A stretch of 64,000 nt of DNA from Azolla caroliniana. Lineage: Eukaryota; Plantae; Polypodiophyta. The position numbers were made by a program, and so were the translations under genes. Positions 767 to 58,635 of this stretch are shown here, in pieces; position 1 is the first letter of the stretch, and each line of letters begins with the position of its first letter. The notes under the pieces are model-generated. The model was given only the letters and a program-made list of their open reading frames with translations. It had not been told where the DNA came from and ran no database searches. Location: contig JBHGNT010000011.1 of NCBI GenBank assembly GCA_043228905.1, positions 5,580,001 to 5,644,000 of the forward strand. Direction: 5' to 3'.

Positions 767-3479
767 CCATTAGTTTTTTATTTTGCAATGCTGAGATGCA
801 AATGACAATTCACGTAGGCCAAGCAAACCATCTCAATTCTCACAATTCCTACTTTGTTAACTACTTGTTTCTTCTATGACATTATGTTATGCATATTCGT
901 ATGTGTAGAGCCACACCCCCAAACATTTCACTAGAGTGGTTCCTTCTCTTTAAATTTCACAAAAAGATTGTCCTTTATATATCGAGATATCGTTAAGGTG
1001 TATAAGCTAGAGCCACATGCAAGCAGAAGCCTTTTATACTTTAATGTTGCTTGAATGTTGCGGTTTGATATTTATCAAGGACAACATGTTCATTACAATG
1101 TTGCCAACCCATATCATTGTAAACATTGTCACCCTTTTAGATATAAAATAGTTTCGCGCGCTTCGAAACCTATGCTTACAATAAAGCTGCATTTAAATTG
1201 TATGGCCAAGCTCATTTTCAACCAAAGGGGATTGACTAGCTCTATATGGTATGGCGATTGGGAAAAGGTACATTAAGGATCAACCATGGGGTAGTGATTG
1301 CAAGTTATTATTATTCAAGTTCAAGCTTTACCAATACTTTAAAGTAAACTACTTTTGAATTGTATAGACATTTTATTTGTCAATGTAATCTCTAGTTCTC
1401 ATCCTCGAAAAAGAGGGAGATCACTTTTGAAAGAGTATCCTTTTTTGAGATATGTTTTCGCATGGTTTTTTATATTGTAGCTCTCAAACACATGAAATTT
1501 TAACCTCATTAATTGACAATTCAAGGTGAAGGGGCTTTTCTACAGACGATTGGTTTGACCTCTCGTTGGTAGCGCACTTGCATATGATGCCAACTGCGGT
1601 TTTGTTGCCCCATTCATTCAATGGTCACAATATATTCAAATAGTTTGTACATGGTCCCTAGCTTTTCTCATGGGAAATCTGGTGTTTGGTTCTCGAGTAA
1701 ATTATTAGGTTTGTATAGTTCAGAGCACATAAGTTTTGGTCAAAGAGCTTGACTTGGAATCGTACTTGAATTACAAGTTGGTTAAGGATTGGAAGCTACT
1801 CGATGTGCTCAAACTAGGTCTACATTCATGATTCTTTATGGGCAAGTGATACATGCAAAAGGAACTTCTAGGACGTGTACTAATTTATTTCTTTCCCCCA
1901 ACTCTAGCTATTATAATTCCTCTCCCCAACTCTAAGTTCTAACAATACATCATGGCAATTGCTCTTTAGATGAACAACTTAGATAAATTATCGGCTCCCT
2001 CCTAGATAAAATCACTTCCATGCGAAACTTCAGTCTTTGTTCTTGACTTCAAAATCTAAGCTAAAACATCCACATCATTGTCACTTTTAGTAAGAGGAAA
2101 TTTTCGAGACACTTTGTTGGCGGTGTTGGTCAACTAAAAATGATGAGTATTTTAAGCCTTTCAATAGAATATCCACCCAAACCATATGATAACATATTTA
2201 TTTCCTTTGAATGTCCTTGGTATCTAATAACTATGATGCTTTTGGAATTATTGCTTACAAAACATCATATAAAGTTACTAGTTTCCGATTTATGCTAAAC
2301 TCAAAACAACCTTCTTTGGGGACACATTTGACCACAACATAATAGAGCCAAGAGGTAAATATTGTCGTTGAATCGGTTTCCATTTTATGTAGGAATATGT
2401 GAAACCTTCACTTAAATTATTTTCTTCGTGCCCATCCAATGAAGGGCATTCCCTAACTCATTTATTTTGAAGCCCTCCTAATCAGACAAAGTTAATACAT
2501 CCTCTCGTTCATACAAAGTTTGTAGAGCAAAGTTCTCTCTAACCTTCTTCTTTCTTTCTTTCTTTTTCCAAAATGAAGCTACTTTCCCATTAGTTAGGAA
2601 AGATTATTACATAGAGAGTCTACAAGGAGACTTATACACACATCGGGGAGTCTTCCTCCGATCAAGTAAAAGAAGATGAGCCTACTTACAATGCCTTGTG
2701 GCCTAACTTAAATGTAAGAAGCTACCTATTTTCTTGAAAGTTCACTTCAAGAACACTATCGTTTCTAGGGCAAAAGAAATATCGCACGCTAAACCACAAG
2801 GTGAATTGTTTGTCTTTAGCATTTACTATCTAAATGAATACATACACGATATACGATGTATGTATGCGTGCATGCATGCATAGTTTGTATATGGACACAT
2901 TTATTATGTGTTGCCAACATAGCTTGCACGTTCTACCAACAAATTAATTGCTAAGTTTTGGAGGATTACATATTTTTAATGGATTTCCAAATATGTCTAA
3001 AGGTAAGGCGGTAAACCACAAAATTTAAAGTTTGAATGTCAACCTAGAAAGTCCATTATCGAATGTACACATAATAAGTATGTAACAATGTCTCTTATCC
3101 ACAATCATGGATAATACAATTCTTTCCCCAAATCACAACTTCTAAATGTTCACTTTTCACAACCCTTTGGGTTGAAAACAATGCAAATTTCTTCCTTACT
3201 AGTACATATTCCTCAGCTCTATTGGTTTCTACATTTTTCAATTATTGTTAGCCTATCTTTCTACTCAACTTAATATTTATTCTCCTATGCCTTTCCATGT
3301 CCCTACCTTCATCATTAAGTCTACTATAGAAAACACTCTTAAAAACATTCAACTTCCCGCCATTAGAAGGTTGTAGATATTGACAATCACATTAGAAATG
3401 TTTGGTTACTAATGCTATTGGAAGTGTGTTGCAATGCCTAATAGGTCTTTCTCACAATCGAGTCACAATTATATTGTAT

Positions 3480-4420: not shown

Positions 4421-7325
4421 ACAAAAGACAAGGTGGCCATCAATCAATACCTCGTTCACAAAACTCATAATCTTCTTCTTACATTCCCATTTAACAGGAT
4501 GATCACTATTTTCAAAAGCGATTTGTATTTTGAACTCTTGTTCTCTTAGATTAATGTGATTTGTTAAGGATGTTTCCCATTTTTTTGTATTAAAGTGTGA
4601 TTGAAGTAATTGTGTGGCTCATGATCAAACAAGATCCGCTACAGAATTTTTCACCTACAATTACCAACACAGAGGGGTAATCTACACGATAAATTGTCTT
4701 AGTTCCATGGGAGGCAAGCTTTCTATCTGCTCATTGAAGTGTTCAACATTTTATGTCTTGAACGAATTGCAGTGAAATTTCAAGATTGCAAAGTAGATTT
4801 CATGGTAAAAAGTTATGTTCGGAAGATTATCTTTTGCAAATGATGGGAGTTGAACCCACAACATCAACTTTTGAGAAACTTGACATCTCGCAAACTGGGC
4901 GGCATTCACATTTTAAGGGAGAAAGGAACAATGAGGTCAAATTGTTTGCATCCGACATAGAAGACTAGAACCCTCAAGGTTATTCCTTGAAGCCTTGACT
5001 ACACAAGCTTTCAATAATTATGTGTTCCCATTAATGTGAGCACTTGAGCTCAAACCACAAGCTTTGTTCTTCTACCACATGGGAACCCACACCACCAATC
5101 CATGATTAAGTGAAGGGTCAAGCACCCAACCCTTGGTTGGGCTTCAATCATCGACAACAGCCTTCTCCAAGAAGAATATTGGCTCACGTCTCTTACCTTT
5201 GTGGAGCACCTAACTCCCAAGACATGAGAACTCATACTAGATCTTTGAATGCATGAAGCTTGATTACTCGACTACCCTCCTCGAGGAGGGCAAGCATTCA
5301 ACATCTTAGGGTCAAACGATACGCTGATCTTAATCCTTGAGGGTGTTCGAGCTCATTCATTCCCCCTTTTGAGGGCCTCCTACGCAAGCCTTGAGCTTTA
5401 TCCTCCTCGATTTGAGGGTTGGGCCCCAAGTTTTACTTTCACATTATAAGAACATATATATGCACCCATATTTCCCAGTTAAACAAACATCCATACCCAG
5501 ATTTTACACATTTTATATTTACTTAGACATATATTACGGGCATGACCATATAATATCCCGTGGTGAGAATTTATCATAGTATTCTATACACGTGGATAAG
5601 TGTGAGGGTTAAATGAGAGTGTAAAGAAGGGGAAGATTACTTTTAATCCTCGGGATTGAGACAACCCATTAGGCCAAGTGTGAACTTGCTTGGGGGCCTT
5701 GGGTCTTGTTATGAATATGAGGCCTAACTATCCTCATTTCATCATCTCTTGACTATGTCGAGACTCTATTCTTGTGGTGGGTCAACTCTTGTAGCGAGCG
5801 CGCTAGCACCAGGTACGACTCGACGTCATGGTGGTGTTATGGGACGCCGATTGAGGCTCAAGTCTGTCTCGATCCCTTCGCTCGAGGGTGGTCGGGTAGA
5901 TTGCCACCCTTCTCTCTCTCTCTCTCTCCTTTCTTATTTCATATATATTATATCCTTATTATATGCTTACATTAGATCATAACTCTAACAACATACATAC
6001 ATATTTATGCACAAACACTTACTCACATGTACTCCCCCAACATAAAACAATTTACTTATACTTATTCATATTTACGTACACACATTCAATTACATCTTTC
6101 CCTTTGACATATTTATGACTTTCCCATGCACGCGAACATACTTTAAACAACTCATACCCATTTTCCCATTTCACTCATACCCACACACTATCACACCATT
6201 TTGACCATTTTCTCTCACTACCCCATTTTCAATAACTATAAACAGACTAATTTACAACCTTTGTATACATACACGTGACATACATATTCCCATAGTTAGC
6301 ACATTTACATGAAAATATAAACCCTTCGCTACATGTACAACAATACATACAAGTACATTGAAACAAGTATACACTAATTCACATAAACCTTTGTATACAT
6401 ACACATACATATACTCATAATTAGCAGTGAGCAACACATTTACATGACCCTTAGCTACATATACACCTATATGTACACCTACATTGAAACAATTACTTAT
6501 TTACTCATCTTGACAAACACACACTCATTTACATAGATATATTTATGAATTTACATACATGACTTTGGCACATATTTCCTCATTTAGGCACACACTTACA
6601 TACATCTACATAATTAGATAGGCATAGAAAAATACAAGCATCTTACACATTCTCATAAACCCATACACATACTTATTCACAACGGCATGTTTATGAATAT
6701 ACGTGTATTTATTTGTGTATTTTAGTAATGTTGGAAGAAGTGTACATGAACGGAACCCACACAAAAAATGCACAAAGTGCACGCCAATAAAAGGGCCTAC
6801 ATCCTATAAGAAGAAATAGCCCTCTTTACAACAATCATTCTCCATGACTTCTTGCTCGGCAATTCCATCACTCTTTGCTTCAAGGGCTTGTGCGATATTT
6901 CCACAATAGCATTGGTTCCAAATGTCGGATTGATGCACATGACTCAATACGCATCACACATGCAAACAAAACATAATGCAAGTGTGGAGTTGAGTGAAAT
7001 AATGCTTGGAAGAAGAGAGGACAGAAAACATAAATTTGTGGTGACTTACACACATGTTCACCTTCCAATGAGGGAAGGGCTACATTTATAATTATTGGAA
7101 ATTGGAAGCCTTTCCACTCACTCCGAGTAGCCAGCCTTTCTCATCAAAGGAAAGGCTATACCCACGGTCGTCCAAGGGTTTAGGGTTCCATGGAAAACCC
7201 TAAACCCTAAACGTTCGATCGTAGCTTTTAACTCTGCGCCGCCATCGCCATCGCCATCGCCATCGCCATCGCCTTCGCCTGCTGCTACCATCTCTCTGTC
7301 TATCTCTGTCTGTCTGTCTGTTCTC

Positions 7326-17635: not shown

Positions 17636-20033
17636 GGTACCATATCAAAAGCTTTCTTGAAGTCTACAAAGCAACAATATAAACCTTTACCTCTAAGGCG
17701 ACTTTCCTCCATTAATACTCGAAGGGTGATAAGGTGATCAATGGTGCTATGGTGTTTCCGAAAGCCAGCTTGTCCATAAGCTCTCTTACCATTTTTTTCA
17801 ACCCATACACTTATATTTGATTCCATTATACATCCAAATAGTTTTGCCATTAATGAGCCAACCATGATGGTTCGATAATTGTTTACATTATTTATATCTC
17901 CACCTTTATGTAAAGGTTTGATCCAATTTGTAGTCCAATCGTACAACATACCATGTTGCAATGCATCATTAAACATATCTCTTATCCATATATGTGCTTC
18001 CTTTCCCATCCATTTGAGCATTTCAGCCTTTATACATTGAAGATCGCTTGCCTTTTGAGAGGCCAATTTCTTAAGCCCTATGCATATATCTTCAATGTGA
18101 AAGAGAACCATAACACATCATCTTTCCTGCAAGTACACATAATCAATATGTTGCCGAGTAGGCCTCTAGGACTCCAAGTACCTCAGGAATTATGGACTGG
18201 CAGGAAGCTAAATTAGACAAGCTTAGGATTTTCGGATGTGAGGCATACACCCTCATACTGAAAGATGACCATTGAAAATTAGAACCGAGGTTCGGGATAT
18301 GGACCAGACAACAAGTTCGGATACTGACTTTGGGACCTAGAGCATAGACAAATCGTTCGAAGTTCGGACGTAGTGTTCAATGAGTTGGCTATGCACAAGA
18401 CAACCGAAAAGGCCTATTGATGTCCAAAGGGTAACGTTTTCTAAAGTGCCAACCCCTCATGACGGCCCAACCCATAACACGAGGTCGGCTTCATGGGTAG
18501 CCGAATCCTCTAGCACCGACTCGGCACAACCGAACGATTCGGCTTTGGACCATCCGACATCGACACCGGATGCGACTAGTCCAATCATACCTCGACGATC
18601 CGAGAGACTAACGCAACCCCTGGAGAGGTACTCTCCTGGAGTCTTCTTCACGGATGCTAGTGAACCGACGTCATACGAAGAAGCATCGGCTTTAGCCGAT
18701 TCCGCCGCATGGCATCTGGCAATGGAGTTAGAAATGAACTCCATTTGGGCAAACAAGACTTGGGACTTGGTCGAATTACCGAAGAATCGACATGCTCTTC
18801 CATGCAAGTGGGTCTATAGACTAAAAGAGACATCCGATTCAGCCACCCCAAAATTCAAAGCCAGACTAGTAGCAAAGGGTTTTCGACAAGAATATGGCGT
18901 CGACTTTGACGAGATCTTTTCACCAATGGTGAAAATGATGACCCTCGCTTTATGCTCGGTGTAGTGGCACCGAGAACTTGGAGCTGATTTAGCTAGATGT
19001 AAAAACGAAAATCCTCCATGGTGACCTAGAGAACGAAATTTATATGGAGCAACCGAAAGGCTTTGTGGTATCCAGCCAGGAACATCTAGTCTGCCGACTC
19101 AAGAAGAGTCTATATGGCCTGAAACAAGCACCGAGATAGTGGTATAAGAAGTTTGATGACTTCATCCAATCAATCGGCTTCCGAAAGAGTGATGAGGACC
19201 ACTGTCTCTTCACCAAAACAACTCAAGATGGGTCACCCATCTTCCTCATCATATACATGGATGACATGCTACTCTCCGCCCGGTATGCCGGTGAGCTCGC
19301 CGAACTTTTTCAGCAACTGCAGTTGAAGTTTGCCATGAAGGACCTTGGTCTAGCACGACACATTCTCGGTATGAAAATAAACTGTTGAAATCAAAATCGA
19401 TGACAATTGTTTCTGTCTCAATCCAACTATATCGGCCATGTCCTAGAACGCATCAACATGCAGTTGACCCCGCTCCCCATTAATGTTCGGCTATCTTAGC
19501 GAGATTGCCCGACATCCAGTCCGGAGGGGGAAGATATGAAGTCTGTATCGTATGCACTAGCAATCGGCTCCTTGATGTACGCGATGGTCGCGACACGACC
19601 AAACATTGCTCATGCCGTCGGAGTCGTCAACAGATTCATTCACAACCTCGGCCAATCGCATTGGAACGTAGTAAGGCATATGTTCATATATCTAGTGGGC
19701 ACAAAAGACTATGGCATCTTATTTGTCCCAAATAACACTTTAGGCGTATTCAGATACACCGACTCAGACTTTGCCAATTGTGTGAACAGTCAAAAATCGA
19801 CAAGTAGATATTGTTTCAAATTCGGCAATGGAGCGATCTCGTGGAAATCGAAACTTCAAGAGTGCACTGCCACATCAACAATCGAGGCTGAATACGTAGC
19901 CGTGTCCGACGCGGTGAAAGAGGCCTTATGGCTCGGTCGGCTGGCATGCATGTTTCAACAAGCCAAATCCGGTTCATCACAACGCCTCTAAGCATATCGA
20001 CGTTCTATATCACTTCGTTCAAGACTGCGTCAT

Positions 20034-23000
20034 TGTTACCGTACGAGATGTACGGGTGATTGATAAGTGTGATAAGTGAGAGCGAAAGATGTAATGTGTT
20101 GATATGTATGTGTGATTTTATACGATTATGAGTGTGAATGTAAGTGTGAGTGTGGTAGATACAAAGAGGTGTGAGTGAGTGACTAGGTGTGAATGCCAAG
20201 GGGGCTTGCACCCTTGTGGATCTACCCCTTTGTACCTATTTAACCCCTTATGGGGAATGAATGAATACATGAATAACCATTTCTCTTTCTCTCAATCTCT
20301 CTCTTGTCATCTCTCTCTTCTATCTCCCCTTACGTTGAACCCCCTTGGGAGGGGGGTGGAGCCATTCTAGGCACCACCCCCCACCCCGCAATGCTTCTCA
20401 ATGCACATCATGCTATCACCCACAATGATTCTTATCGCCATCACCATTTCCATCTTCATCACTATCAATGTCATAATCAATCTCTCAATGCTTATCACCA
20501 ATCATCATAAATGTTAACCCTAAAACTGACAACACCTTATGGCGACCACTAAGGCGACCCCCTTTGGAGACGGAGTCAAACAATAATACGCGGAGATTCG
20601 AGGCATAGTGACGATGATATGTGAGAGACGAGCAAGAAATGATGATGACATGCACCAAATGGCAACGACGATGTGGGAGAAGCAATGAAGATGTGCAAAA
20701 AAAAAAGAAAAAAATGGAATCGATGATGTTGTGCAAAAGGCGACAACAATGTGCGAAAGAAGTCCAAAATGGAAGATTAACTGCCGCATAATTCTACAAC
20801 GAACTAATCTCTATATGCGTATGTTTTGTTTGGTCTGTTTTTGTGTAAATGTCCAAGAAATGGTGCCAAAGATGTACGAAAACAATGACAATGTTGAGAG
20901 GAAGTCACGGAATGAGGACGTTACGTGAGTGTGCGAGAATGGAAACGACAATGTGCAAATGTGCAGTTAACGACATAGTGCATGTGCCAGAAAGCGTGGT
21001 GTGAGAGACAACCAAAAAGACACAGACGAACAATGACCGGGCCGAATAGATGGTGACAGGCGACGGACAGAATAGCAAGGATGATCAAAAGGTTGCAGAG
21101 GCAGCCGAAAAGACACAACCGAACCGCAGCCAGAACGGCGATGGAGATGGACAGAACAAGCGGCGACAGTGCGGCAGTCGAAGAGAAACCAGACCTACGG
21201 CCGGATGAAGCAACGGCCAGAGCGGCAGCCGCTAGATCGATTTCCGGAATGCACAAAGACACATAACGGCCGAAGCGAGGTCAACGACCGAACGATGCAA
21301 TGGAAAAGACGGCTGACGACGACTAGACAACGGCCGCAGCCGGAGTTGCCGGAATGGCTGAATGGAGCGGCAGCCGAACAGTGGTGCCAGCCGTACAATA
21401 GCTAGACAACAGCAACGATCGGAGGCGGCGACGGCCGGTAGACATTGCCAAGCCGCGACACATAAAAAGGAGCGGCGACAGAGACGCGGCCAGACAGCAA
21501 TGAACGGTGCCTGGACAAGGCCAAGCGTCGAAGATGGAGAGAGGCCGGAATGGCCGGACAGTGGCTGGAATAGTCAGACAGTCGTCAGAGTGGCCGAACG
21601 GTGATGGCCAGACAACCAACAGTCGGAGCGGGGGCTGAACAGCTAATGACTAGAGACGGCCAGACATCAGCCGGACCGTCGACCAGACCGGGTGGACGGA
21701 CGAACGGGCCGTACGACTGAGATCGTCAGACCGATGGTCGGACAACTATGGGAGAGTAACCGGACAGGCGGCCGGACGGGCCAGACGGACACAGAGATGG
21801 GAGATGAAAATGGTTGGACATACGAGCGGATAGCGGATGCCAGGCAAGACAGCAACCGACGGCCGGAGTGAACGGTAGGTCAGATGAAGCGGTGATAGCA
21901 GGACAAAGGGCGGCGGTAGCCAAAAATCAGCGGTCGAACAACGACCAAGGAAAGCAACGGCCAGACGATGGTCTCAATGCACTGTGGCGGCCAGATAACA
22001 GCGGCGACATGAAACCCTAAATAGACAGCCGGAGTTGCCGAAACGATGGGCTGGATGGCAACGGAGCCGGAGACAGAGAGCGAGTGGCAAGAGTAACCGA
22101 CACGATCAGAATGGCCGGCCAGCGGCCGGAATGGCGAAACAACCACCACCACAGGTGGAGACCTGACAGGAGGCTGACGCGATACGTAAAAACAGAAAAG
22201 AAAGAGAAAAACAAGCGAAAGAAAAAGAGGAAGAGAAAGAGAGGAAACAAAAAAAAAAGAGAAAAATTAGGGTTTGCAGAGAGGCAAGAGTGTGAGAGGA
22301 GGAGACATAAGAAACGCCCTAACAAAATGAAACTAAAAAAAAAAAAAAGAGTGGGAGAAAAAGAGAAGGATAAAAAGCATCCAACAAATTTCGAAAAAAC
22401 CTAAGGGCATGTGCAAATTTTTTAAAAAACATGAGGGTACACACTAGAATTTTCCAAACCGAAAGACACCAACGGAATTTCAAAAACTCATGAACCTAAA
22501 AGAAATGGACGTGATACACACGCGACTCACAAGATATAAAGAAGAACACACATACATACAACATTTTTTTGATGACCCAAATGATGTTACCGAAGTTCGT
22601 GAACCGACAGAATGGGAATGTTCGTGTCGATGAAGATTCGCTGGCCGACGGAGATGTTCGAGTCAAGCGCTCCGATCGAGGGAGTCGATCGTTGATGTTA
22701 CCAAAGTTCGTAAGTCGACAGAACGAGAATGTTCGTGTCGCAGAAGAGTCGCTGACCAACGGAGATGTTCGAGTCAAGCGCTCCGATCGAGGGAGTCGAT
22801 CATTGAGAGGACCGATGGAAATTCCGATCAAAGAAAAATTATGATCAAGGCATGTGGGATCGACGTGCAAGGCACTCTCCCACGGGCGTGCCATATTGTG
22901 TTACCGTACGAGATGTACGGGTGATTGATAAGTGTGATAAGTGAGAGCGAAAGATGTAATGTGTTGATATGTATGTGTGATTTTATACGATTATGAGTGT

Positions 23001-23370
23001 GAATGTAAGTGTGAGTGTGGTAGATACAAAGAGGTGTGAGTGAGTGACTAGGTGTGAATGCCAAGGGGGCTTGCACCCTTGTGGATCTACCCCTTTGTAC
23101 CTATTTAACCCCTTATGGGGAATGAATGAATACATGAATAACCATTTCTCTTTCTCTCAATCTCTCTCTTGTCATCTCTCTCTTCTATCTCCCCTTACGT
23201 TGAACCCCCTTGGGAGGGGGGTGGAGCCATTCTAGGCACCACCCCCCACCCCGCAATGCTTCTCAATGCACATCATGCTATCACCCACAATGATTCTTAT
23301 CGCCATCACCATTTCCATCTTCATCACTATCAATGTCATAATCAATCTCTCAATGCTTATCACCAATCAT
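20034..23370. mobile_element. Non-autonomous LTR element (TRIM/LARD-like) with ~2.4 kb non-coding interior
   Basis: Left LTR TGTTACC..GACAACA 20034-20534; right copy 22899-23370 appears identical to the first 472 bp; PBS-like TGGCGACCAC at 20540; no retroelement protein motifs in the interior ORFs. Confidence 0.85.
22582..22803. repeat. 111-bp tandem duplication inside the non-coding LTR element
   Basis: TGATGTTACC.AAGTTCGT...GAGGGAGTCGATC at 22582 and 22693. Confidence 0.9.
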
Positions 23371-24028
23371 TCGCATTGGAACGTAGTAAGGCATATGTTC
23401 ATATATCTAGTGGGCACAAAAGACTATGGCATCTTATTTGTCCCAAATAACACTTTAGGCGTATTCAGATACACCGACTCAGACTTTGCCAATTGTGTGA
23501 ACAGTCAAAAATCGACAAGTAGATATTGTTTCAAATTCGGCAATGGAGCGATCTCGTGGAAATCGAAACTTCAAGAGTGCACTGCCACATCAACAATCGA
23601 GGCTGAATACGTAGCCGTGTCCGACGCGGTGAAAGAGGCCTTATGGCTCGGTCGGCTGGCATGCATGTTTCAACAAGCCAAATCCGGTTCATCACAACGC
23701 CTCTAAGCATATCGACGTTCTATATCACTTCGTTCAAGACTGCGTCATTTCAAGGAAAATTGGCCTCAAGAAGGTAGCTACAACCGATAATGTCGCAGAT
23801 GGGATGACCAAGTGTCTTTTTGCGGATCGATTCCGATCCCTTCGGCACCAGATGGGCATAGAGAAGAATTGTTGGCCTAGAGGTATTTCTGGAGTAGTAT
23901 GAACGGGGACGAGTCGGAGCATAATTATTAGTTAAGTAATTTTATAGGAACAGACATATCCGATTAGTGTGTTGATCTTAATGCTATTGTGTACCTGCCA
24001 TTCTGTGCTTTAATTATTAATCTTACGC

Positions 24029-29597: not shown

Positions 29598-29885
29598 ATT
29601 GAGAGCCATGCCTCCATATATTATATTCACACACACACACACACACAGAGAAGACACGTGAAGAAAGAAGCATATGAACGAACGAATGAACGAATGAATG
29701 AATGAATGAAGGCTTTCTTTCTGTGTCTTTGTAATGAACTTCTGTTCTGATTGATTGTGCAGAATCTTGAGAAGCAGAAGAAGAGGAAAGAAGAAGGAAG
29801 CAGCAGAAGACAGAAGGAAGAAAGAAGAAAGAAGAAGGAAGAAGAAGCAGCAGAAGAAGAAGAAAGAAGGAAGGAAGAAGAAGGA

Positions 29886-32309
29886 ATGGCGTTGGGCGTG
29901 GTTGTGGGCATGGTTCGTGCAGGCCTGCGCCGCAAGCACAAATCGAGCCTCAACATCCTCACCTCCAAAACAGGGCCTCGCAACTTCTATAAAGGGAAAA
30001 ACTGTCTCTCCACTGGTCGCCACACCAGCAAAGGTTTTTATTATCAAACAAACTCTCTCCTGTGTTTCTCTGCCTCGCTGTTTCCTTCTTCTTCTTCTTC
30101 CTATTGCTTTTATTATTATTATTCTTTCAAGGAAATGAAACGCCTTCATTTCAGTTCCCCTTATGTTTTCATAAAAAAAAAAAACGTTTACTCCTCATGA
30201 ATCCAAGGAATGCATTTTTTTTTTCTTTTTTTTTTTTACACCATTATTTTAGGTTTAGGATTTTGATTTTGATTTTGGATGGGTCATGTATTGTGGAATG
30301 CTGCTCCTAATTCCTCCAGTGAAGACAATTATTTGCTTACTTTTCCACCGTTTTAGGTTTCATGAAGTTAATGGCAGTGGCATTTCATAAAACCTAATCA
30401 TTTTCACCTTTTTCTGATGTGCACGTCCCCGAAGTTGAGAGGTTGCTTCGAAAAGGCTAGACCAGGTTTCCCTGTGAGTGTGGAGGAAGTACTATGATCT
30501 TCCTAGGTCACATGATCTTCATTGAGCTCAACTTTTATGTGAATTGTGCATAGTGTTCTTGACATATTGCACTTTGTGCGAAACTTGATTGTTAATGTAT
30601 CAACAGAAAATCTATCCAAAGAATTGGTCGATCATTGTTTATAGTGAAGCTACTAAACTTGTTGAGGTGAGTGGATGGATTGAATATGCGTTGATGGGTG
30701 TGGATAACTTAAGAAAGACAGATAGATTGCTTTTATTATTGTGCTCAGAGGTCAAATAAGAGAATGTTGTGGGGTACGATACTAGGATGCATGACCTCCT
30801 GAGAAGTTTCTTTGCAAGTGCGCATAAGCAGCAGACAAGGAAAATTCGTTGTTCCATATTCTTATTGCTTAGGGGTTCACTTCATGCCCAATAAAATCAT
30901 GTCATTTAGAATGACATGTTATAGGTTTCAGTATTTACATCTTTTACATGCAAGTCCTCTGATGGTTTAGTTAGCAGACATGATTATTTGCATCATTTTG
31001 TTGTGGCTTCACAAAATAGACTTCCTGAAAGACGTTTGTGTTAGATCTTTAGACGGCAATTCAGACTCTTATGGTTAACTTATGACTTTATGTTATATCA
31101 TGAAAATTAGAAGTGTAATATATTGAAGTCTGAATTGACTAGCTTCTATAAATTGTCCCATCCAGATGGGTCATCCGGTTGGAAACAATAATCCAGAATA
31201 ATAAATTGGAATTGCGAGTGCATTGGTAGTGAAAAAATGATCAATTGAATGTTTGATTACAGTGGTAAGGAGGTAAGAATTTTCCAGAATCGTTGGAATA
31301 CATAAATTAGGCACTTACTCTTTGTATTTGAGATAGGTGAATAGCCAGAAGTGAACTGTTGGTCAAATCTTTGAAAGTTCAGAGGGATAAATCTTTGAAG
31401 TCATTGGATCGAGAAGCGGAGATAGGTGAATAGCCAGAAGTGAACTATTGGTCAAATCTTTGAAAGTTCAGAGGGATAAATCTTTGAAATCATTGGATCA
31501 AGAAATGGAGATAGATGAATAGCCAAAAGTGAACTATTGGCCGAATGTTTACTTAGTGTTTCAAGAAAGTCGAGAGGGATAAATCTTTGAAATCATTGGT
31601 TCAAGAAACGGAGATAGATGAATGGCCAGAAATGAATTATTGCTCGTTAGAGTTTCGAGAAAGTCCAGAGGGATAAATCTTCGAAATCAATGGATCTAGA
31701 AATTCGGTATCTAACTAGAGTAAGTGAGAGGGAGTGACTGAAAAAACCCATAATATTGCACTTGGGATAACCACTCTCCTCTAAACACGCTTTTGCACAA
31801 AGTAAAACATGTGATTTCCATATACTTATCACATTAAGCCACAAACAAATCAATTTCTGCTATTAAAATTTATTTCTCTAGCATTAGTTCATTCCACTCT
31901 TAATTTCAAAATTCTCATGGAAGTCTTGTGAATTTATTTGTCAATGGTTTAAAAAAATTCAATATAGTATCTTTCCACTTTCACAAAATAGTGATATTAC
32001 AATGGCTTGGAACTTTTCTTTAATATCTGTGGTGGTGGTTTGGCTTTCAGGGAAGTATATCTTGATTGCAGAGAAACTTCCAAAATATGTTGTCCCTGAT
32101 CTAACTGGATTCCCGGTATGGATAGCCCATGGATAAAGGGTTTTTGTTTTGTATCAGTATTCCTTTTTATGTTTGAATAAAGAGTTTGTTGGGTATATAA
32201 TGTGATCATTGATATGCGGAAATTCTTTTCATGTTATATGTAGCTCAAGGCATATGTAGAGAGGAGCACTCCAAAGAATATTCTGACCACCAAAGAAGCG
32301 TCTTCATAG
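29886..32309 (+). CDS. mL41: Mitochondrial large-subunit ribosomal protein mL41 (MRPL41/YmL27 family), exons 29886-30033, 32051-32115, 32244-32309, 92 aa
   Basis: Spliced product MALGVVVGMVRAGLRRKHKSSLNILTSKTGPRNFYKGKNCLSTGRHTSKG-KYILIAEKLPKYVVPDLTGFP-LKAYVERSTPKNILTTKEASS*; GT-AG introns with consistent phases; YKGK..G.HT.KG and YVVPDL.GF.LK.YV family motifs. Confidence 0.93.
31330..31700. repeat. ~89-bp tandem repeat, 4 units, in mL41 intron 1
   Basis: GAGATAG.TGAAT.GCCA anchor at 31330, 31419, 31508, 31611. Confidence 0.88.
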
Positions 32310-35550: not shown

Positions 35551-38500
35551 TGTCACAGACAAGTATAATAGAGCAAAGCGAAGACAAGACTAGAAAACAA
35601 GAGAGAGGAAAAGAACAAGAACTTAACTTATAGAATCCGTAACTGGTGTTGTTCACCTTGATTAGAATCAAGGTGCACCTGAGTATTTATACAAGAAGGT
35701 AGGGCTATGTAAGCCAACTAGAAATAGAGTATGCATGAGGATGCATGCAATAGAGAATGCATGAGAATGTGTGCAAGCTAGAAATGAGGGTGCATGCAAG
35801 CTAGGAACTTCCAATGTTCAATCTGCACTACATGAAGTTGGATTTGGTATAAGGAGGTATTGTTCGAGGATTTGGTTGACTCTTTCGGTTTGGCCATCAG
35901 TTTGAGGGTGGTGCGCGGTTCACAAGTTCACAGAAGTCCCAAATGTCTGTAGAAGTCGGCGCCAGAAGTGGGAGATAAATTGAGGACCTTGATAAGAAGT
36001 GACATCCTCAAGGAAGCTGTGTAATCATACGACATTTTTCAGAAAAAGGTTAGCCATCTCCTCCCCCGAAATGGTTTTCGAACATGGGACAAAATGAGCC
36101 ATCTTCAAAAACCGATCGACGACCACTAGCACCGCGTCATGGTCAATGACCCAAAGAAAGTTCGGTGATAAAGTCCATGGAGAGAGATGCCCAAGGTCGA
36201 CTGGGAATTGGAAGTGGGTGTAGAAGGTCGTATGGACGATGGTGAGCTGCTTTGGAGTGAGCACAAACGTCACAAGTTTTGATAAATTCTTTGACCAATT
36301 TCCAAGGTTGGGGCCACCAAAACCCCCGAGACAACAATGCCAATGTTTTCGCGACCCCAAAGTGTCCGACAAGAAGATCATCGTGGCAAGTTTGCATTTC
36401 TCACTTTTGGCAAAGAGCCTATATTCTCAGAGTTTGGTGAGAACCAGCTAGACGTGGTGTGTGTGCTCCTCCCAGTTCGAAGAAAAAACTAGGATGTCGT
36501 CAAGGTAGACGACCACGAAATGATCGAGATACTCTATGAAAAATATCGTTCATCATGTGCTGGAAGACCGTCGGAGCGTTGGTAAGGCCGTATGGCCTCA
36601 CTTTGTACTCCAAATGTCCATAGTGCGTCCGAAAAGCCGTTTTCCACTCGTCCCCAAGGTTGATGCGCACCAAATTGTAGGCGCCCCGAACGTTGATTTT
36701 GGAGAAGATATGCCCAGCTCGGAGTCGATTACGCACCGTAATTTTGTTGAGACCCCGATAATCCACAGATAAGCGTAAGGAGTCGTTCTTCTTCTTAACA
36801 AATAAGATTGGTGCCCCGACCAGTGATTTGGATGGTTGAATGAAGCCCTTTGCAAGATTCTTAGCCATATATGTGCGGAGAGCCTCAAGTTCGAGTTAAG
36901 ATAACCCATAGATAGGATCGAATGGGGGGATGCTTGCCAGCTTTGAGTTCGATTGGGCAATCATAGGGGCGATGAGCCGGTAACCGATCGACATTCCGCT
37001 CTTCGAAGATGTCGAAAAAGTTGCTATATCGGACGGGTAAATTGTTGGCAGGAATGGTGATGTCCCCTAACACAACGGCAAGTGTAGCGACCAAACCGGA
37101 CTCGACCACAACGGAATCAAGAGAGTGTTGTGACCTAGCAGGAATTGGCCTTACTGGAAAAGTGATGGAGCGGTTACACCAATCCACTGTCGGATTGTGT
37201 ATCTCCAACCAAGATAGCCCCAACACAATCGGATTTCGGGGCGTTGCGATGAGGTAGAACGTGAGTTCCTCTTGATGCGCCCTGACTTGAAGTACCAATG
37301 GGATAGTGGCTTCGGTAACCGCCCTCGAAGAGAGAACTCGACCGTCGATCGCCTCAACAGATATGGGTTATGATGTGCAGACGGTAGGGATATTATATGT
37401 GCAGACAAACGATTTATCGATAAAGCAAGTAGATTATTCGGAGTCGAGCAAGGCATGAGAATGTATTGAAGTCGAACCAAAACAAAGACTTACTTGCAAA
37501 GAGAACCCTCCTAATGGCGGAACGAACTTGTACGAGCATGAAGAAGGTGAGTAACGGTGTCGTGAAGAATTTCGGCCAGAGGTGGAAACCGGGAAACATT
37601 GTCTACATCGGCGGGGTGCAGCGTGTGTACGCACCCATGTACATTTGGTGTGAATATCGAGGGCGCCTTTATGGCGCCGAAGAGTAGTCAAGTCGGGGCA
37701 GACGATCCCATGTAAGTCGGGATTTGTCCCACATTGTAATGCATCCCTTTCCTTGTTCTATAAAAGGAAGGGAACGCCCTTTGTGAAAGGGTTGCCCGTT
37801 TTGCATTAGAGGGTATACCGTTAGGTTTAGAGTTAGTTTCTTCTTCTTCTTCTTCTTCTCCTTCGTGTTTTGCTTAGGGTTTGCTTTGGTTCGGCCTCCT
37901 GTGCAAGACCCCACTCAGCGCGACGAGCTGAGAGCTCCCCGACGGCGGCTTGGCAGCTGACGACTACTGTAACCTGCCTTGGAACGGCTCGAAGCCGGGG
38001 ATGTATTCTTTGTTTTATATACATATATACGTTTGCGTCTGTCTGTGTATATTCGCGTCTCTGTTGGTGTCGGGTGCTTCCCCTTTCCTGCACTTCCTGT
38101 ACTTAAGGGTGTGAGTCGGGTTGGCCTGTGTGTGCGCGTGTGTGTGTGAGTGAGTGTGCGAGAGTCGGTGATAAGCTCTCTCTCTCTCTCTCTCTTCGGT
38201 TGCTTCCGGTGTACTTCTGGGATGCCCCGGAAACGGTGAAGCATGACTTCCTACGCTCCATCACTCCCTAGTCCAAGACCCCCGTGGTCCCGCCTTTCTC
38301 CACACACGCGTGTAACAACGCGACAACGGGAAGCGTCCAATGGCATGGTTCCTACTGCAACCGGACTTGGTCGTTTTCTTGTTGAGGAACCTTTGCAAGA
38401 TGTGCACGATGAAATTGGTGTCGCAAGCCCCGCACCGGGGAGTGGTGGATGACATGGTTGGGTTGCCACAATAGAGACAGAGTCCAATATCCCGACGATG

Positions 38501-39213
38501 TTGGCGTTGGGCTTCAATTAGTGGTTGGAACCGAGCGTGGTCGATCTCCATCGGGGTATGGAAATCGACTAGCTGACATCGCAGGCAATCTAACGGAACT
38601 TTGAGGTGTAGACCGAGGCTGGACGTGAGCCTTGTTTGAAAGAATAAAGCTTTGTGAGTGCCGTTTGTCGCTGGTTTGTCTCGCCAAATGTTGCATCGAG
38701 CTCCTCAATGAAAGTAGTGAAGTTTTCTAAGAGAGGGGATGAGGTTTCGATCAAGGATGCAAACCACGCTTGCGCTAGCCCGTAGAGAAGCGTGCTGACA
38801 AGTCCAAGCCAAGAAAAGTCGCTAGCATATTGTTGGGGTTGTAATCGGATGATAAGTCGAATTTGGTTGGTGAAGGTGTGAAGTTATGCCCTCGTGCCGT
38901 TGAATTTGTCTGGTAGGCTAATGGTTGGTTCGAGAACATATGGATGGGAAGAGGACATGGTCGGGCTAGGTGTCGGCGGTGGTTGTGACTTGGCAGGTGG
39001 TGGATTTCTTGAAGTGCTGTATTGCAACTCTCGTAATGATTCCCGAAGGATTTCATTCTCTAGCTGAAGTTGTTGCAAGGCTGCCATGACTTGGTTTAGG
39101 TTGTCGACGGAGCGGGACATGGTAGCAAGAAGAGGGTGAAGGTGAACAAACTGTCACAGACAAGTATAATAGAGCAGAGTGAAGACAAGGCTAGAAAATA
39201 GGAGAGAGGAAAA
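35551..39213 (-). mobile_element. Internally deleted Ty3/gypsy element (Tcn1/Tf1-like), copy 1
   Basis: LTR 35551-~35851 and partial LTR 39152-39213; gag (PDKFNGTR), RT ([18 protein letters not shown]) and INT (HFGVAKT, SMDFITEL) fragments; RNase H region missing relative to copy 2. Confidence 0.88.
37558..38325 (+). mobile_element. Solo LTR (768 bp) of the TGTCGTG...CGCGACA gypsy group
   Basis: Termini TGTCGTGAAG / AACGCGACA; 4-bp TSD ACGG; empty site present in the sister element near 57257-57271. Confidence 0.9.
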
Positions 39214-43163: not shown

Positions 43164-45640
43164 CTCCATCCTATCCCCTTTCGTGCGCAGACCAGCAGGC
43201 ATCAGCATCTGTTCGCCGGCCTGTTCGGTTGTAACCGCTCGTGTGCTCTGTTGTTTTGTGTCATTTGTTAATATACAAACATTCGTGTCTCTCTGCCTCT
43301 GTGTCCATTCGTGTTTTCTGCGTTGACGGGCCGTGTCCCTGTTTCTTTGCTCATATGTAACCGGTCGTCCCTCTCTTTCTCTTCCCCCTCCTATCACCTG
43401 CTCTTCGGTTCAAGACCCCGGTGGTCCCGCCTCGTTTCTCCACGCACGCGCGTAGTAACGCGACATATTTGGTGAACCCGACATATTTGGTGAACGCGAC
43501 ATATTTGGCGGCAGAGGAGCAGAAGATGAGGGGGTCGGATCTTGTAGAGGCCATGGCTTCGGCCGTGGACCGGATAGTGAGCGCGCGCGAGGGCACCGAC
43601 GTCCTTGACAGGGCTATTGAGGGGATCGTCGGTACGATCAGCCGGTTCAGTGGAAAGGATGCCACGAGTTATTTGGCGTCCTACCGGGCGGAGATGTTGA
43701 TGAGGGATATTCCGGAAGAGAGGCGTCTTGCCAGATTCCCTCGAGTGGCGATGCCGGGAATCCATGCGGACGTGCTCGAGGTTCGGGCGGAGAGCCGGAC
43801 CTGGGAGGAGTTCGAAGGACGGCTCCTGGAGAAATACGGGCTGGATGACGCGCTTCGACTTTTGAAGCGGGGCTTCATGGAGTGGGTGGAGTCCCTCGAC
43901 AAAGGAAGAAATGCGTCGGCACTCCTCCGGGAGTTTGAGGATCGCTTTGCGCGCCTTTCGGCGCTCGATCAGACCGTTCTGGACACAAGTCGTGTCCTAC
44001 TGTTTGTCAAATCGGTTGACGCACGGGATCGGGAGAAAGTGGGCTCCTTACTGGAAACCAAAGACGGGCTGACGACCGACTGGGCCGCGGTAAAAAGAGT
44101 CTGCGGCTGTTTTGACAAACGGTGGGAGTGGGCTGATACAGGGGCGACCGGGGCAGGTCCTGTCGCAGCAAGGAAGCTCGAACCGATACCGCAGGCGTGA
44201 CGGGAAGAGACCCGGGAGTGGCTCGAAACCGGTTCGGCTTCAACCGGCGTGGTTAGAGGCTCGTCCGGGGGGGCAACTTTGGAGGAGTTGACACAGGCGG
44301 TAAAGGATCTCCAGATCGCCCAGGCTCAGAGGGAAGGTGGCGAACAGGCTCGTGACCAACGGCCTCCGGCAGGAAATAGGTGCATGTGGTGCGACAAGGT
44401 CGGCCACATCCGGAAAGACTGCGGGGACTTTGCGGAGGCTTTGAGAAGCCGGGTAGTGTACCTGTGGGAAGGTCGGGTGCACGCCAACAATACCCGGAGG
44501 GCCCTGAACCGAAACGACGGGCGAAGAGGAATGAAAAGGCTGATGGAAGAGGCGGCGGCCCGGCACGCGGAGACCATCCACTACTCGGCGTCGGCCGGTA
44601 TTCGAGTCGGTGGTAGCGAGGCCCGGAAGGAGAGCGAAGCCGGGTTTTGGCCGACGGTGCTGGAAGGCCTCGCCGGTGCCCGACTAAAGAAAGACGAGGC
44701 GGACCGTGCGGAGAAGCGGGTCTAGGAGGTAACCGGGTGGAGTGACCCGGTTGAAGAAAAGACGGGTTTCGTCGAAGCAGCTTGCCAGAACTACGAGGCT
44801 CTGGTTGAAGACAAACGGGTAGGTAAAACCGGAGGGGCCGGACCCTCACAAAGATACGAAACCCGATTCAGGCCGAAACAGAACGAGGCCGGTGAGACCA
44901 GTGCCCGGGATAACCACAAGAAGGGCGGATACCGGTTGGGCACGGAGACGAAAGGACCACGGACTACGAAAGGTCCTGGAAGAACGAATCCTCGACAGCA
45001 AGGTGGAACTGTCGTTGCGGGAGGTGCTCGGAATCGCCAAGAAGGAGTTCCACGACTCCATCGTAGACTTGGTGAAGAGGAAGAGGCTGTCGACGGAGAC
45101 AGAACCGGAAAGGCCGGTGGAGGTGCGGACGACGCACATGGAGGACATGGCGCTGGAAGACGAGTGGGCGGAGATCCACTACTCGAGGCCACACTGGGCC
45201 CGAGCGACCACGGAAACCCCGGTGAAGATCGGAGATGTTCAGGAACCGGTGGTGGCGCTGGTGGACCACGGTTCGGAAATAAACCTGATGTCCATGGACT
45301 TCTACAAGAAGGGGAAATGGCCGATCAACACCAAGCACGGGTGGAAGATACGGGTGGCGACGCACGCCACCGAGGAACTACACGGGGCCTGCCCAAACGT
45401 GCGAGTTAAGATCGGCGACGTCGAGATAGATCAACACTTCTTTGTGCAGGAGACGTCCTCGCACCCAGTCATACTGGGAGAACCGTACATTACGGCAGCG
45501 AGGATGGAGACCAAGGTGTTGGACAACGGGTCGGCTTACGCGAGGGTCAAGAGTCAGGATGGGCGTCATTCGGTCCAGTTCCTGACGGTGCGACTGAACC
45601 ACGAGCGAAACCGCGAGACCCTCGGTGGTGAGAACCGAGA

Positions 45641-47742
45641 GGATTTTTAGAGAGGGTTGTTAAGGCGTGGGGCCGCGACACTCCGGACACTCCGGGAAAA
45701 CCCCACAAATGTACGATAGAGGCAAAACCGAAGAAACCTTGTACCATAAGTAGGAAGTTTTGTTTCTCCGACAACGGAGGGTGTACGATAGTCGGCGTCG
45801 TTGGCCGAGAAAAGACAAGGGCGGAAGAGCGACTTCGGGCGTGTGGAGTTCTCGGTCCCAGCGAGGAAATCAACAGAGCCGTGGAGGCGGTCTCCTTCGA
45901 CGATACCTTGGGAATACTGCGAGAGGTGGTCAGAGAAGGCCTTAAAGAGGACCGGACAATACCGGTTTGTTCAGAAGAGATGTACGAAGTCATCACGGAC
46001 TTCAGTCGGGGGCTCGAGTCGGATCGGACGGCCCGGGTTAACACGAAGTACAAGACTGTGGACCGGAAGGTAAGGCCAGTCGCGACACCCTTACCGGAGG
46101 GTAGCGAGTTGCGAATCAAGGGGGTCACGTCGGACCCCAGTTTACGAGATCCGGCCTGCATAGGACACACCTTCACCGATAGAACGCTACGGGAGCTAAA
46201 AATCGGTGGGGGCGGTTTCCTACTGCCGGCGAAAGAAGACTGGTTTCGGAGAATGCTCGGAAGGCACGGGAAAGCCTTCGCATTCTCACCGGAAGAGATC
46301 GGGTGCGTAGACCCGACAGTCATGAAGCCGATGGTGATATTCACGGTACCACATGTGCCATGGAATCTCAAACCAATTCCGGTACCGAGAGCTCACATCC
46401 CGGAGCTGATGGAGCTATTGAGACAGAAAGTCGATATGGGCATCCTCGAACCGTCGAGTGCCCCGTACTCGAACCGGTGGTTTACCGTACCGAAGAAGAA
46501 CGGGACATTGCGCTTCATTCAAGACCTGCAACCGGTCAACAGAGTGACCATTCGGAACGCAGGAATCGAACCAACGATAGACGAGTTCGCGGAGGCCTTC
46601 GCCGGAAGGTCGATCTACTCGGTCGGGGATCTGTACTCGGGGTACGATCAGTTCCAACTAGCCGTAGAGAGCAGAGACATTACGATGATGCAGACTCCTC
46701 TCAGCCTAGTGCGGATGTGTACCCTGCCACAAGGAGGGAACAACTCGGTGGCCCACATGGTGAATGCGATGAACAAGGTGCTGAGGGATTGTATCCCGGA
46801 TATCACCATGCCATTCTTGGACGACATCCCGATCAAGGGATGTCCGGTGGAGAAAAGGGACGAAACGATTGGACCGGACGGATGCCGGAAATTTGTGGCG
46901 ACACACATTGACGACTGCGAGAGGGTGCTGCAGAGGCTAGAGGACGCGAGGCTCACCTTCTCCGGGGAGAAATCGGCCTTCGGGCAATCGGAGATCATGG
47001 TCGTCGGACATCTATGCGGACCGTATGGTCGGAAACCGTCTCCGGCTAAGGTAGAAGCCATCTCCGCAATGAAGCCCGATTTTAACTCGGTCACGGAGGT
47101 ACGACGGTTCTTGGGAGCATGCGCTTTCTACCACATATGGATCCCGCATTACGCCCACATTGCCGAGCCGCTATACGGGTTGCTGAAAAAGGGGCAAATA
47201 TTCGAGTGGCGGGACGAGCATACGGAGTCGGTCCGAAAGATGAAGGAGGCTCTTGCTGCAGCTCCGACACTCCGGAAGGCTGTCTACGAGAAAGGTACTC
47301 CCATCTACATGACGGTAGATACGAGTCCGATCGGGATCGGATGGGTCGTCAACCAAGAAGATGAGGACGGCATTCGGTTCCCAATCCGGTTCGGCGCGAA
47401 GGTCCTCAGCGAGCGACAGCGAGGATACGCCCAGGTTAAACACGAACTCTGGGGTATCGTTTCGGCGGTGAAGGCCGATAAAGACTATCTGATTGGGACA
47501 GAAGTGATTATCGAGACGGACTGCCTACCGATTCTCGGCATGGTTTCCGGATGCGCAACCCCAGACCTGGCAATGCTCAGGTGGATAGCGTACATCAAGT
47601 CCCTGTGCCTGGAAATACGACACATTTCCGGGAAAGACAATGCCATGGCCGACATGCTTTCGAGGGCACGATTCGACGACGAGGGCGGCATGGTTTCGGA
47701 GGACGAGGAAGTCGGCGTGGACTTCTTCGAGGCGGCTTACGT
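45641..47742 (+). CDS. Gypsy RT-RNaseH ORF (frame open from the gag-PR stop region)
   Basis: The 663-aa ORF at 45881 has no upstream stop back to at least 45641; retroelement homology ends near 47742. Confidence 0.85.
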
Positions 47743-47744
47743 AT

Positions 47745-48588
47745 TGTTAAATGGTCAAAGGCTGAGTGCTTGCAACTCTTCATCCATGGCTTCCATCCAT
47801 CAGGGGTCACGAGCCACTTTTGTAAAGCTTTCGAGCTCTTGTTTGACCATTACCTTCATCATGAAGGCATAATGATGGGCCATATACTCGTTGTAGTCGA
47901 ACCAAGTGATTGGGTTCTTCTCTCGAGATGAGTGTCAGAGTTTTTCGTTTGTCAACGTGACCACCTTCTTTACTCCAAGTGTCCACATAATGGGTACACT
48001 AAACTCGTTGTCTAGTGAGCGAGCTGAAACATCCAAATCATTGTCGTCGGGGTGGTCGACTTCGTATTCGGTCATCTTACCTTTGCCTTTGTCCGATCTC
48101 AGACTTGACCGCGACGTGCTTTGGTCGCTTGAAGGCTCGTGTGGTTCACTTAGCTCAGTAGAGCTTGGATTGTCCTTTGGTAAAGGACTTTGCCGAATAT
48201 CGTCATCTGGGTTGACATCCAACTCTTCCTCAATCGGGCCGGATGGAGTTGAATCGGGTTCATACCATGATGCCGATTCGTCGAAAGCTACATCCCGACT
48301 CACCCGAACCACTTGGGTCGAAGGGTTGAAGCACTTGTATCCCTTTTTCTCGAACGAGTATCCTACGAGGATACATTTCTCCGAATTCATGTTGAGCTTC
48401 AGTTGTTTTTCGTTCGGGATGAGTACATCCGCAATGCTTTTGAACACTTTGAGGTGTGAAAGGATCGGCTTTCTTCCAACAAAGATCTCGTATGGAGTTG
48501 GCTCGTGCACTCCATTAGTGGTGCACCGATTCATGAGATAGATGGTTGTGGATGTCACTTCTCCAATAGAAATTCGGCATATGCTTCT
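47745..48588 (-). pseudogene. Copia integrase C-terminal/pre-RT fragment related to the 11950 family
   Basis: KCILVGYS..KGYKCFNP..VSRDVAFDESASWY; YNEYMAHHYA. Confidence 0.88.
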
Positions 48589-57500: not shown

Positions 57501-58630
57501 GAAATCGACCTCCATCGTGGTATATGTATAACTGGGTGATGGTAAGGTTGGCGTGGGAGACAAGTAGGGCCTTGCGATTAATGCGTTTCGGGAGGAAGTA
57601 TGAGACTCGTGAGTCCCCCGTTCTTCTTGACGAAGTTCGAAGAGACGATTGTCACACAGGACAGCTTGGGAGATTACTTGAGACAATGATGTGGGCTCCG
57701 GGAAGTTTAAGAGAAGAATCTTACCTCGTTTCGGAGACCGCGACGGAAATGGTCGCATAGGGCTTGGTCATACCAATTGACATCGTAGGCAATCTGACGG
57801 AACTCTGAGGCATAGACCAAGGTTGGACGTGAGCCTTGTTTGAAAGAATAAAGCTTTGTGAGTGTCCTTCATCGTCGGTCTATCTCGCCAAATGTCGCTT
57901 CGAGCTCCTCGATGAAAGCGGTGAAGTTTTCTAAGAGAGGGGATGAGGTCTCAATCAAGGGTGCAAATCACGCTTGCGCCAGCCCAGAGAGAAGCGTGCC
58001 GACAAGTCCAACCCAAGAAAAGTCGCTAGCATACCGTTGGGGCTGTAGTCGGATGATAAGCCAAATTTGGTTGATGAAGCCGCGAAGATACGCCCTCATG
58101 TCGTTGAATTTGTCAGTTAGGCTAATTGTTGGTTCAAGGACATATGGATGGGAAGAGGACGTGGTCGAGCTAGGTGTCGACGGTGGTTGTGACTCGACGG
58201 GTGGTGGATTTCTTGAAGTGCCGGATTTCAACTCTCGTAATGATTCCTGAAAGATTTCATTCTCTAGTTGAAGTTGTTGCAAGGCTGCCATGACTTGGTT
58301 TAGGTTGTCGACGGAACAGGACATGGTAGCAAGACGAGGGTGAAGGTGAACAAACTGTCACAGACAAGTATAATAAAGCAAAGCGAAGACAAGATTAGAA
58401 AACAAGAGAGAGGAAAAGAACTTGTGTTGTTCACCTTGATTAGAATCAAGGTGCACCTAAGTATTTACACAAGAAGGTAGGGCTATGTAAGCCAACTAGA
58501 AATAGAGTATGCATAAGGATGCATGCAATAGAGAATGTATGAGGATGTGCGCAAGCTAGAAATGTGGATGCATGCAAATCATGAACTTCCAATGTTCAAT
58601 CTAGACTACATGAAGTTGGGTTTTGTTACA
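54580..58630 (-). mobile_element. Ty3/gypsy element (Tcn1/Tf1-like), copy 2, 5' LTR 58356-58630, truncated in integrase
   Basis: gag, protease, RT ([17 protein letters not shown]), RNase H (DASDFAIG, TDHKNL, ADALSR) and INT fragments; near-identical to copy 1. Confidence 0.9.
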
Positions 58631-58635
58631 AGGAT

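Follow-up and report, generated by a model that had tools for sequence, protein, structure and literature searches.

A non-coding LTR retrotransposon family from Azolla caroliniana carrying the 3' half of tRNA-Arg(UCU) in sense orientation at the position of the polypurine tract

Priming of the plus DNA strand from a polypurine tract (PPT) is the general rule for retrotransposons with long terminal repeats (LTRs) and for retroviruses (PMC5371799, PMC7197481, PMC6317226). Canonical elements, as described for yeast Ty3 (PMC5371799) and for Arabidopsis (PMC7197481), combine direct LTRs with TG..CA ends, a primer-binding site (PBS) inside the 5' LTR and a plus-strand site before U3, the latter being a purine-rich PPT that resists RNase H. 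Here we describe a 3.3-kb non-coding LTR retrotransposon with direct LTRs and TG...CA ends, located in a 64-kb stretch of Azolla caroliniana DNA (contig JBHGNT010000011.1, positions 5,580,001 to 5,644,000; hereafter the window). It shares the layout of the canonical elements, but carries a sense tRNA copy ending in CCA where these have their PPT. This replacement of the PPT is real, conserved and unexplained. From the sequence we propose that in this non-autonomous family, which lacks a PPT, the tRNA-Arg(UCU) copy in its place lets a host tRNA prime the plus DNA strand, a reading that we consider evenly poised between right and wrong.

The bipartite PBS of Ty1 and Ty3 resembles the tRNA-derived block in its extended pairing with acceptor stem and T arm through loop-split segments, one of which, in Ty3, lies near the 3' end (PMC5371799). 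There, however, it is the minus strand that is primed, from segments of the genomic RNA that complement the tRNA, whereas the block in the window has the sense of the tRNA. With the OTA group of Ty3/gypsy elements (Athila, Tat and Ogre; PMC6317226; ATHILAfinder preprint, 10.64898/2026.03.20.713144) our element shares a spacer of 3-6 nt (Athila), non-coding regions with tandem repeats and probably a PBS for a tRNA other than tRNA-Met (in that group Ala, Arg, Asp, Lys or Trp); the family offers no protein domain for placement by RT-RH-INT phylogeny or by the presence and position of aRH. Brassicaceae Athila elements have a conserved PPT at the junction of internal region and 3' LTR, which the window family does not. 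The miniature terminal-repeat retrotransposons (TRIMs) Helenus, Ajax and Cassandra are likewise non-autonomous LTR elements with small-RNA-derived sequence (PMC10886601). In these TRIMs the LTR itself contains the tRNA or 5S part, which is proposed to be an RNA polymerase III promoter, and Helenus keeps both PBS and PPT, whereas in the window element, and in an array designated L006, the tRNA part is outside the LTR, in the PPT's place. By its LTRs, PBS and non-coding content the window element is an LTR retrotransposon, but one that has no PPT. Our literature searches, with subscription papers and preprint supplements outside their scope, returned no account of tRNA-primed plus strands in LTR elements.

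The tRNA-derived block and its conservation

The initial annotation of this locus had delimited the left LTR, its spacer, the PBS and a tRNA-like motif before the right LTR, all with correct coordinates. It had also found no purine tract adjoining either LTR, and indeed the longest purine run in the preceding 20 nt is 3 on the + strand and 4 on the - strand; a purine run of 9 nt, AAAGAAAAA, is present 69 nt upstream of the 3' LTR and is unconserved in other copies. The right motif, TCCCACGGGCGTGCCA at 22878-22893, followed by TATTG and by the LTR from 22899, had been read as the CCA end of tRNA-Arg(UCU) with one bulge. Match and bulge stand, and the motif fits the 3' end of tRNA-Arg(UCU) in related DNA and in sequencing reads, but its extent had been underestimated. 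The true block measures 50 nt (22844-22893) and aligns to nt 38-76, CCA included, of the tRNA-Arg(UCU) in L006. The local alignment score is 43, against a mean of 19.6 (sd 2.3, maximum 28) for 300 dinucleotide shuffles of the internal region. The likeness exceeds chance, and the block is of tRNA origin.

The block departs from the L006 tRNA by G45 to C, the loss of one T at 47/48, T54 to A and the loss of one C at 65/66, and a 13-nt insert carrying the hairpin GTGC-AAG-GCAC sits directly after A58. The acceptor 5' strand and the D arm are absent, so a full tRNA fold is impossible in the window's family. Homology begins at nt 38, at the A37/38 boundary, and is interrupted directly after A58; tRNA identity is retained also in the unpaired parts of the block (nt 38-42 and the T loop). 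We assume that the tRNA-Arg(UCU) in question bears t6A37 and m1A58. On tRNA-Lys3, reverse transcriptase (RT) stops at two modified bases, A37 and A58; the same study reports that its assay did not depend on the A58 modification (PMC1785368). Rfam and ARAGORN reported no tRNA in the 64-kb window, where the PBS 10-mer TGGCGACCAC and the right-site 10-mer each occur once. Scans for the right motif gave two matches in viral contigs, both due to chance, and in prokaryote genomes none, then one that lacks a preceding tRNA T arm.

Further copies were collected by scanning metagenome contigs with the right motif. This yielded 26 matches at 25 loci (L001-L025), 25 of them from the window's family and one (L006) from another; counts of LTR ends and LTR starts lean towards the motif, since the motif selected the loci. 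The left PBS, which lay outside the search pattern, occurs eight times in these loci and always on the block's strand. Both sites flank one internal region, in the same order, in five independent contigs (L013, L014, L016, L017 and L022) whose internal regions are only ~70-85% identical to that of the window. Among 13 LTR 3' ends, eight lead into the 5-nt spacer and PBS, one into a broken PBS copy, one into a variant PBS (L017) and three into unrelated flank; the spacer measures 6 nt in one variant. As for the 29 LTR starts, 26 are preceded by the tRNA block and three by flank, and the sharp TG end of the LTR is present in all copies. Of the 35 positions upstream of the search pattern, 32 show the commonest base in no fewer than 24 of the 25 copies, and indels appear further upstream. 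Other copies thus keep both motifs and their spacings, the conservation that the initial annotation had proposed to look for. The LTR boundaries themselves are confirmed by unrelated flanks on the left (L003, L008) and on the right (L008, L021, L023), and complete LTR 3' ends are present elsewhere in the family.

Read sets offer a less biased view than motif-selected contigs. In all four the block region is deeply covered, and contigs share the sequence from 22853 but diverge upstream of it (mixed loose ends with an agreement of 0.49-0.77). The tRNA block apparently occurs in further LTR families, with a 2-nt spacer (L018) or a 4-nt spacer (loose ends behind 1896, 3/4 runs); in L018 the tRNA tail, at 1318-1290 (-), leads into an LTR start unlike that of the window's family. 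Tandem LTR units occur in L001, L005 and L013. Such units are common in plants (PMC11899658), and those seen here may be assembly collapse. In L017, at 5196-5269 and 6205-6276 (-), tRNA-Pro(UGG) genes and degenerate copies stand directly after a family LTR without its terminal bases, a possible insertion beside tRNA genes.

The left site is a PBS tentatively assigned to tRNA-Arg(UCG), the label given to it in the initial annotation. Viral tRNAs with an end complementary to it (7-mer) number 38 among 59 pattern matches, comprising 26 Arg(UCU), 6 Asp, 3 Trp, 3 other and no Arg(UCG). For HERV9, databases disagree over this PBS 10-mer, which is given as R or as W (PMC4724089). The PBS strings are absent from five supplementary text files of PMC6317226; the per-element PBS table of that paper may bear on the tRNA label. 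An LTR-PBS spacer of 3-6 nt has been described for Athila (10.64898/2026.03.20.713144), so the left spacer alone is unremarkable and it is the mirrored right spacer that is remarkable. A second invariant patch lies ~20 nt downstream of the left PBS and, by analogy with the split PBS of Ty1, could pair with the T loop. Folding of the left PBS region is no better than that of shuffles (z 0.80). Spacer, PBS and the next bases (20535-20554) form a near-palindrome, CCTTA...TAAGG, which could fold over the PBS and is partly kept in other copies. A subfamily represented in L017 has another PBS after its LTR end (3388-3402), one that matches the tRNA-Arg(UCU) end, and some family members may therefore use the same tRNA at both sites.

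Several features suggest that the + strand is probably the genomic RNA: the internal region has an AT skew of +0.42 on this strand, a direction shared by the sense strands of three of the four coding LTR elements in the window and opposed by one, and the LTR, read on +, has its TATA-like, AATAA and CT-rich tracts arranged as usual. A TATAAA is also present on the - strand, at 20122. If the + strand is the RNA, the right block has the sense of the tRNA and stands where a PPT would be, and the tRNA can pair only with its cDNA copy (or with antisense RNA).

Priming of the plus strand

The two sites led to the inference of dual tRNA priming, which would proceed as follows. With the + strand as genomic RNA, a tRNA at 20540 would prime the minus strand in the usual way. 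Once minus-strand DNA has passed U3 and the RNA has been cleared, tRNA-Arg(UCU) would pair with the cDNA copy of the block through 16 bp (nt 60-76, with a single bulged base) at the tRNA 3' end and a further ~17 bp within nt 38-58, with the DNA hairpin looping out at the A58 boundary. RT would then extend the tRNA 3' OH across the 5-nt spacer into U3. After removal of the tRNA by RNase H, both cDNA ends would keep 5 extra bases, to be trimmed by integrase. An autonomous partner would have to supply Gag and Pol; no coding partner is present among loci L001-L025. The fixed one-base deletion in the block fits a site copied from template rather than renewed from the tRNA. Besides the conservation of the block in the family and in the reads, and its boundaries at A37/38 and after A58, two features count for this scheme: the CCA of the block lies 5 nt before U3 and so mirrors the 5-nt PBS spacer, and there is no purine tract at either LTR. 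Modelling the tRNA-cDNA pair with RNA parameters gives a three-way junction of -66.9 kcal/mol, compared with -27.9 and -18.8 for the single strands, in which nt 38-58 and 60-76 are paired and the hairpin is looped out. The predicted energy adds little support, because homology alone predicts it.

In the L006 contig (2055 bp, L006:1-2055) LTR-like units form an array. The units measure 453-478 bp, save for one that a deletion has reduced to 113 bp; they have the same termini as the window's family and are otherwise without similarity to it. Each of its four complete junctions reads LTR end, 4 nt, a whole tRNA-Arg(UCU) with CCA, 5 nt (AATTG) and LTR start. ARAGORN recognises the tRNA in three of the four, and Rfam scores the cut copy at 31.2 bits. 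L006 is a possible mini-element or fossil cDNA junction. Its tRNA copies are oriented and placed as they would be had a plus-strand tRNA primer escaped removal, been copied and become joined to the other cDNA end, which is suggestive but not decisive, and its species may differ from that of the window. One contig of organism C contains a further whole-tRNA version, with 4 differences over 85 nt. The copy of L006 covered by the reads has a deletion (depth 0 at 1775-1810) directly upstream of the LTR-to-tRNA junction. An interpretation of nt 26 of the L006 tRNA as a reverse-transcription error was rejected, as the reads show no other letter there. Copies of tRNA-Arg(UCU) in the read sets (L006:1819-1894) are apparently numerous and partly tandem, with at least two acceptor-stem types; those with the matching acceptor strand and without CCA are found in loose ends behind 1892 (2/4 runs). 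A more far-reaching version of our proposal, in which the lineage dropped its PPT, host tRNAs prime both cDNA strands via a three-way-junction site shaped around modified A37 and A58, and the L006 arrays are fossil cDNA ends with the plus-strand tRNA primer, appears to us a little more doubtful than an even bet.

Several observations weigh against tRNA priming of the plus strand. The 25 family matches were picked by the 3' motif and contain only 12 distinct 37-mers, and they are not independent. G45 to C (25/25 copies) and T54 to A (22/25) cost pairs with the tRNA in trans, and a hairpin that the element RNA forms by itself becomes longer through them (-20.6 kcal/mol, z -1.92, with 8/200 shuffles equally good); it has no covariation support (covariation term 0.07). 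The pattern speaks for cis folding having a part, be it an assisting one, the RNA snapping off the cDNA and freeing the site, or the function itself. The 18-nt core is short by one base in 25/25 copies. L006 may be an internal deletion, via a 3-nt microhomology with a PBS, from a parent carrying a whole tRNA. The CCA may derive from a gene instead of a mature tRNA, given that in the reads the trailers of host tRNA genes start C-AA and some read CCAA. Finally, the tRNA-Arg(UCU) gene type that is more prominent in the reads differs in its acceptor stem (loose ends behind 1882, 4/4 runs).

In one alternative the primer is self-derived: the tRNA-like piece of the element RNA would fold, resist RNase H or be excised by host tRNA-processing enzymes, and prime the plus strand in cis as a structured substitute for the PPT. 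The element-specific changes that extend this hairpin, the location of the block exactly where a PPT is cut out and the existence of whole-tRNA versions (L006, the organism C contig) agree with it. A purely structural role, however, would not need the tRNA identity kept in unpaired nt 38-42 and the T loop, and no complete tRNA can form when the acceptor 5' strand and D arm are missing; we think a self-derived primer unlikely. Similarly unlikely, in our estimate, is that the captured tRNA piece has no part in priming and is instead a packaging, strand-transfer or RT-pausing signal or a small-RNA decoy, with the plus strand started from an atypical, non-purine RNase H-resistant fragment or from an upstream purine run. 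The conserved hairpin and the purine run 69 nt from the 3' LTR would suit such a role, and priming details vary widely among known LTR elements (PMC5371799). Against this, a primer some 60 nt away would not set the sharp TG end of all copies, that purine run is not maintained in the family, and the block pairs poorly with the family PBS, the two matching different tRNA ends, which makes simple 5'-3' circularisation unlikely.

Replication from either transcript, which the initial annotation had offered as an alternative, has been weakened by the asymmetry of the strands and of the sites, the right being a 39-nt tRNA copy with a hairpin and the left a 10-nt PBS. The element might still be copied from a - transcript, or from both, with the right site as true PBS and the left as second-strand site. 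Both spacers are 5 nt and the LTR has its TATAAA on the - strand, but the strongly A-rich internal + strand, in line with three of four coding elements and opposed by one, and the usual + order of the TATA-like, AATAA and CT-rich tracts make this very improbable. A chance fusion of two oppositely oriented elements had been named as one outcome that would overturn the annotation, and it is not what was found: five other contigs share the two-site layout in the same order, which refutes fusion for the motifs, and the LTRs are direct repeats. The locus is irregular, having a truncated right LTR and a 378-bp duplicated flank, and its 23370/23371 junction is bridged by no listed contig. Nevertheless, both junction regions are deeply covered in 4/4 read sets from two organism labels, and an assembly artefact could account for the flank but not for the motifs. 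Fusion or artefact as the source of the arrangement is barely credible.

Insertion of the window copy

The features of the window copy are collected in Table 1. Two open reading frames (ORFs) of the internal region gave no Pfam match, and coding capacity for gag and pol is absent. The initial annotation had called the LTR copies identical, which holds over the 472 nt present; the right LTR is short by its final 29 nt.

Table 1. Coordinates of the element and its flanks in the window
Feature	Coordinates	Strand	Observations
Left flank, target sequence copy 1 (RNase H region of an older copia element)	19656..20033	+	378/378 identical to 23371-23748; recurs 3' of the element
5' LTR, 501 bp, TGTTACC...GACAACA	20034..20534	+	TATA-like TATTTAA at 20237, then AATGAA/AATAA and CT-rich tract
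LTR-PBS spacer CCTTA, 5 nt	20535..20539	+	5 nt at 8/8 LTR ends leading into the same PBS
PBS TGGCGACCAC, putative minus-strand tRNA primer site	20540..20549	+	Invariant in 9/9 aligned copies, chosen by motif
Internal region, non-coding, A-rich, 2364 bp	20535..22898	+	Longest ATG ORF 97 aa (+), 132 aa (-); AT skew +0.42
111-bp tandem repeat, two copies	22582..22806	+	89% matches
Sense copy of tRNA-Arg(UCU) nt 38-76 with CCA, at the place of the PPT	22844..22893	+	L006 tRNA alignment, shuffle test, 25 family matches
Small hairpin GTGC-AAG-GCAC, inserted directly after tRNA A58	22865..22875	+	Conserved; without covariation support
CCA-to-3' LTR spacer TATTG, 5 nt	22894..22898	+	5 nt in 23/25 family matches, 4 nt in 2/25
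3' LTR, truncated	22899..23370	+	472/472 identical to 5' LTR; final 29 nt absent
Right flank, target sequence copy 2	23371..23748	+	Copia RNase H frame continues unbroken from 23749

The ordinary 4-6 bp target-site duplication is absent at the window copy, and no contig contained a second complete copy of the element together with both its flanks. Instead, the whole 378 bp of left flank are repeated without a mismatch after the truncated right LTR, which is the geometry of a 378-bp target-site duplication. Joining by integrase at one end and by host repair at the other is described as leaving an exact end opposite a truncated one, with hundreds of bp duplicated (PMC5041404). By analogy, the window copy is likely a one-ended integration into an old copia element. 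The described cases concern human immunodeficiency virus 1 and avian sarcoma-leukosis virus under drug or mutation (PMC5041404); the end geometry and the duplication are the same, but here the insertion is a natural one in a plant. The likeness accounts for the flank only, not for the tRNA block. A haplotype join, our first idea for the flank, seems less probable than one-ended integration. An assembly artefact confined to the flank is another possible explanation, consistent with the 23370/23371 junction being bridged by no contig among those listed. The perfect identities of LTRs and flanks indicate a very recent event, in agreement with the recent movement claimed in the initial annotation.

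The window is otherwise rich in copia and gypsy remnants. For one of its copia RTs the nearest named relative comes from a fern, at 68% identity, which loosely suggests a seed-free land plant. A gypsy-type element at 43361-47872, with RT/RNase H and a weak DUF4100 match, is unlike the chromovirus copies at 35551-39213 and 54582-58639. An exon at 29751-30200 resembles mitochondrial ribosomal protein L27 (Pfam MRP-L27, under the curated cut-off), a host gene among the repeats.

Consequences of replacing the polypurine tract

Families such as this one would be overlooked, or given the wrong orientation, by annotation software that expects a PPT in every element. A natural and abundant lineage that lacks a PPT and has been active recently would demonstrate that the selection of a purine primer by RNase H is replaceable, and the primer specificity of RT and RNase H would become testable in a new setting. 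Both DNA strands of the element would be open to control by tRNA supply and by 3' tRNA fragments.

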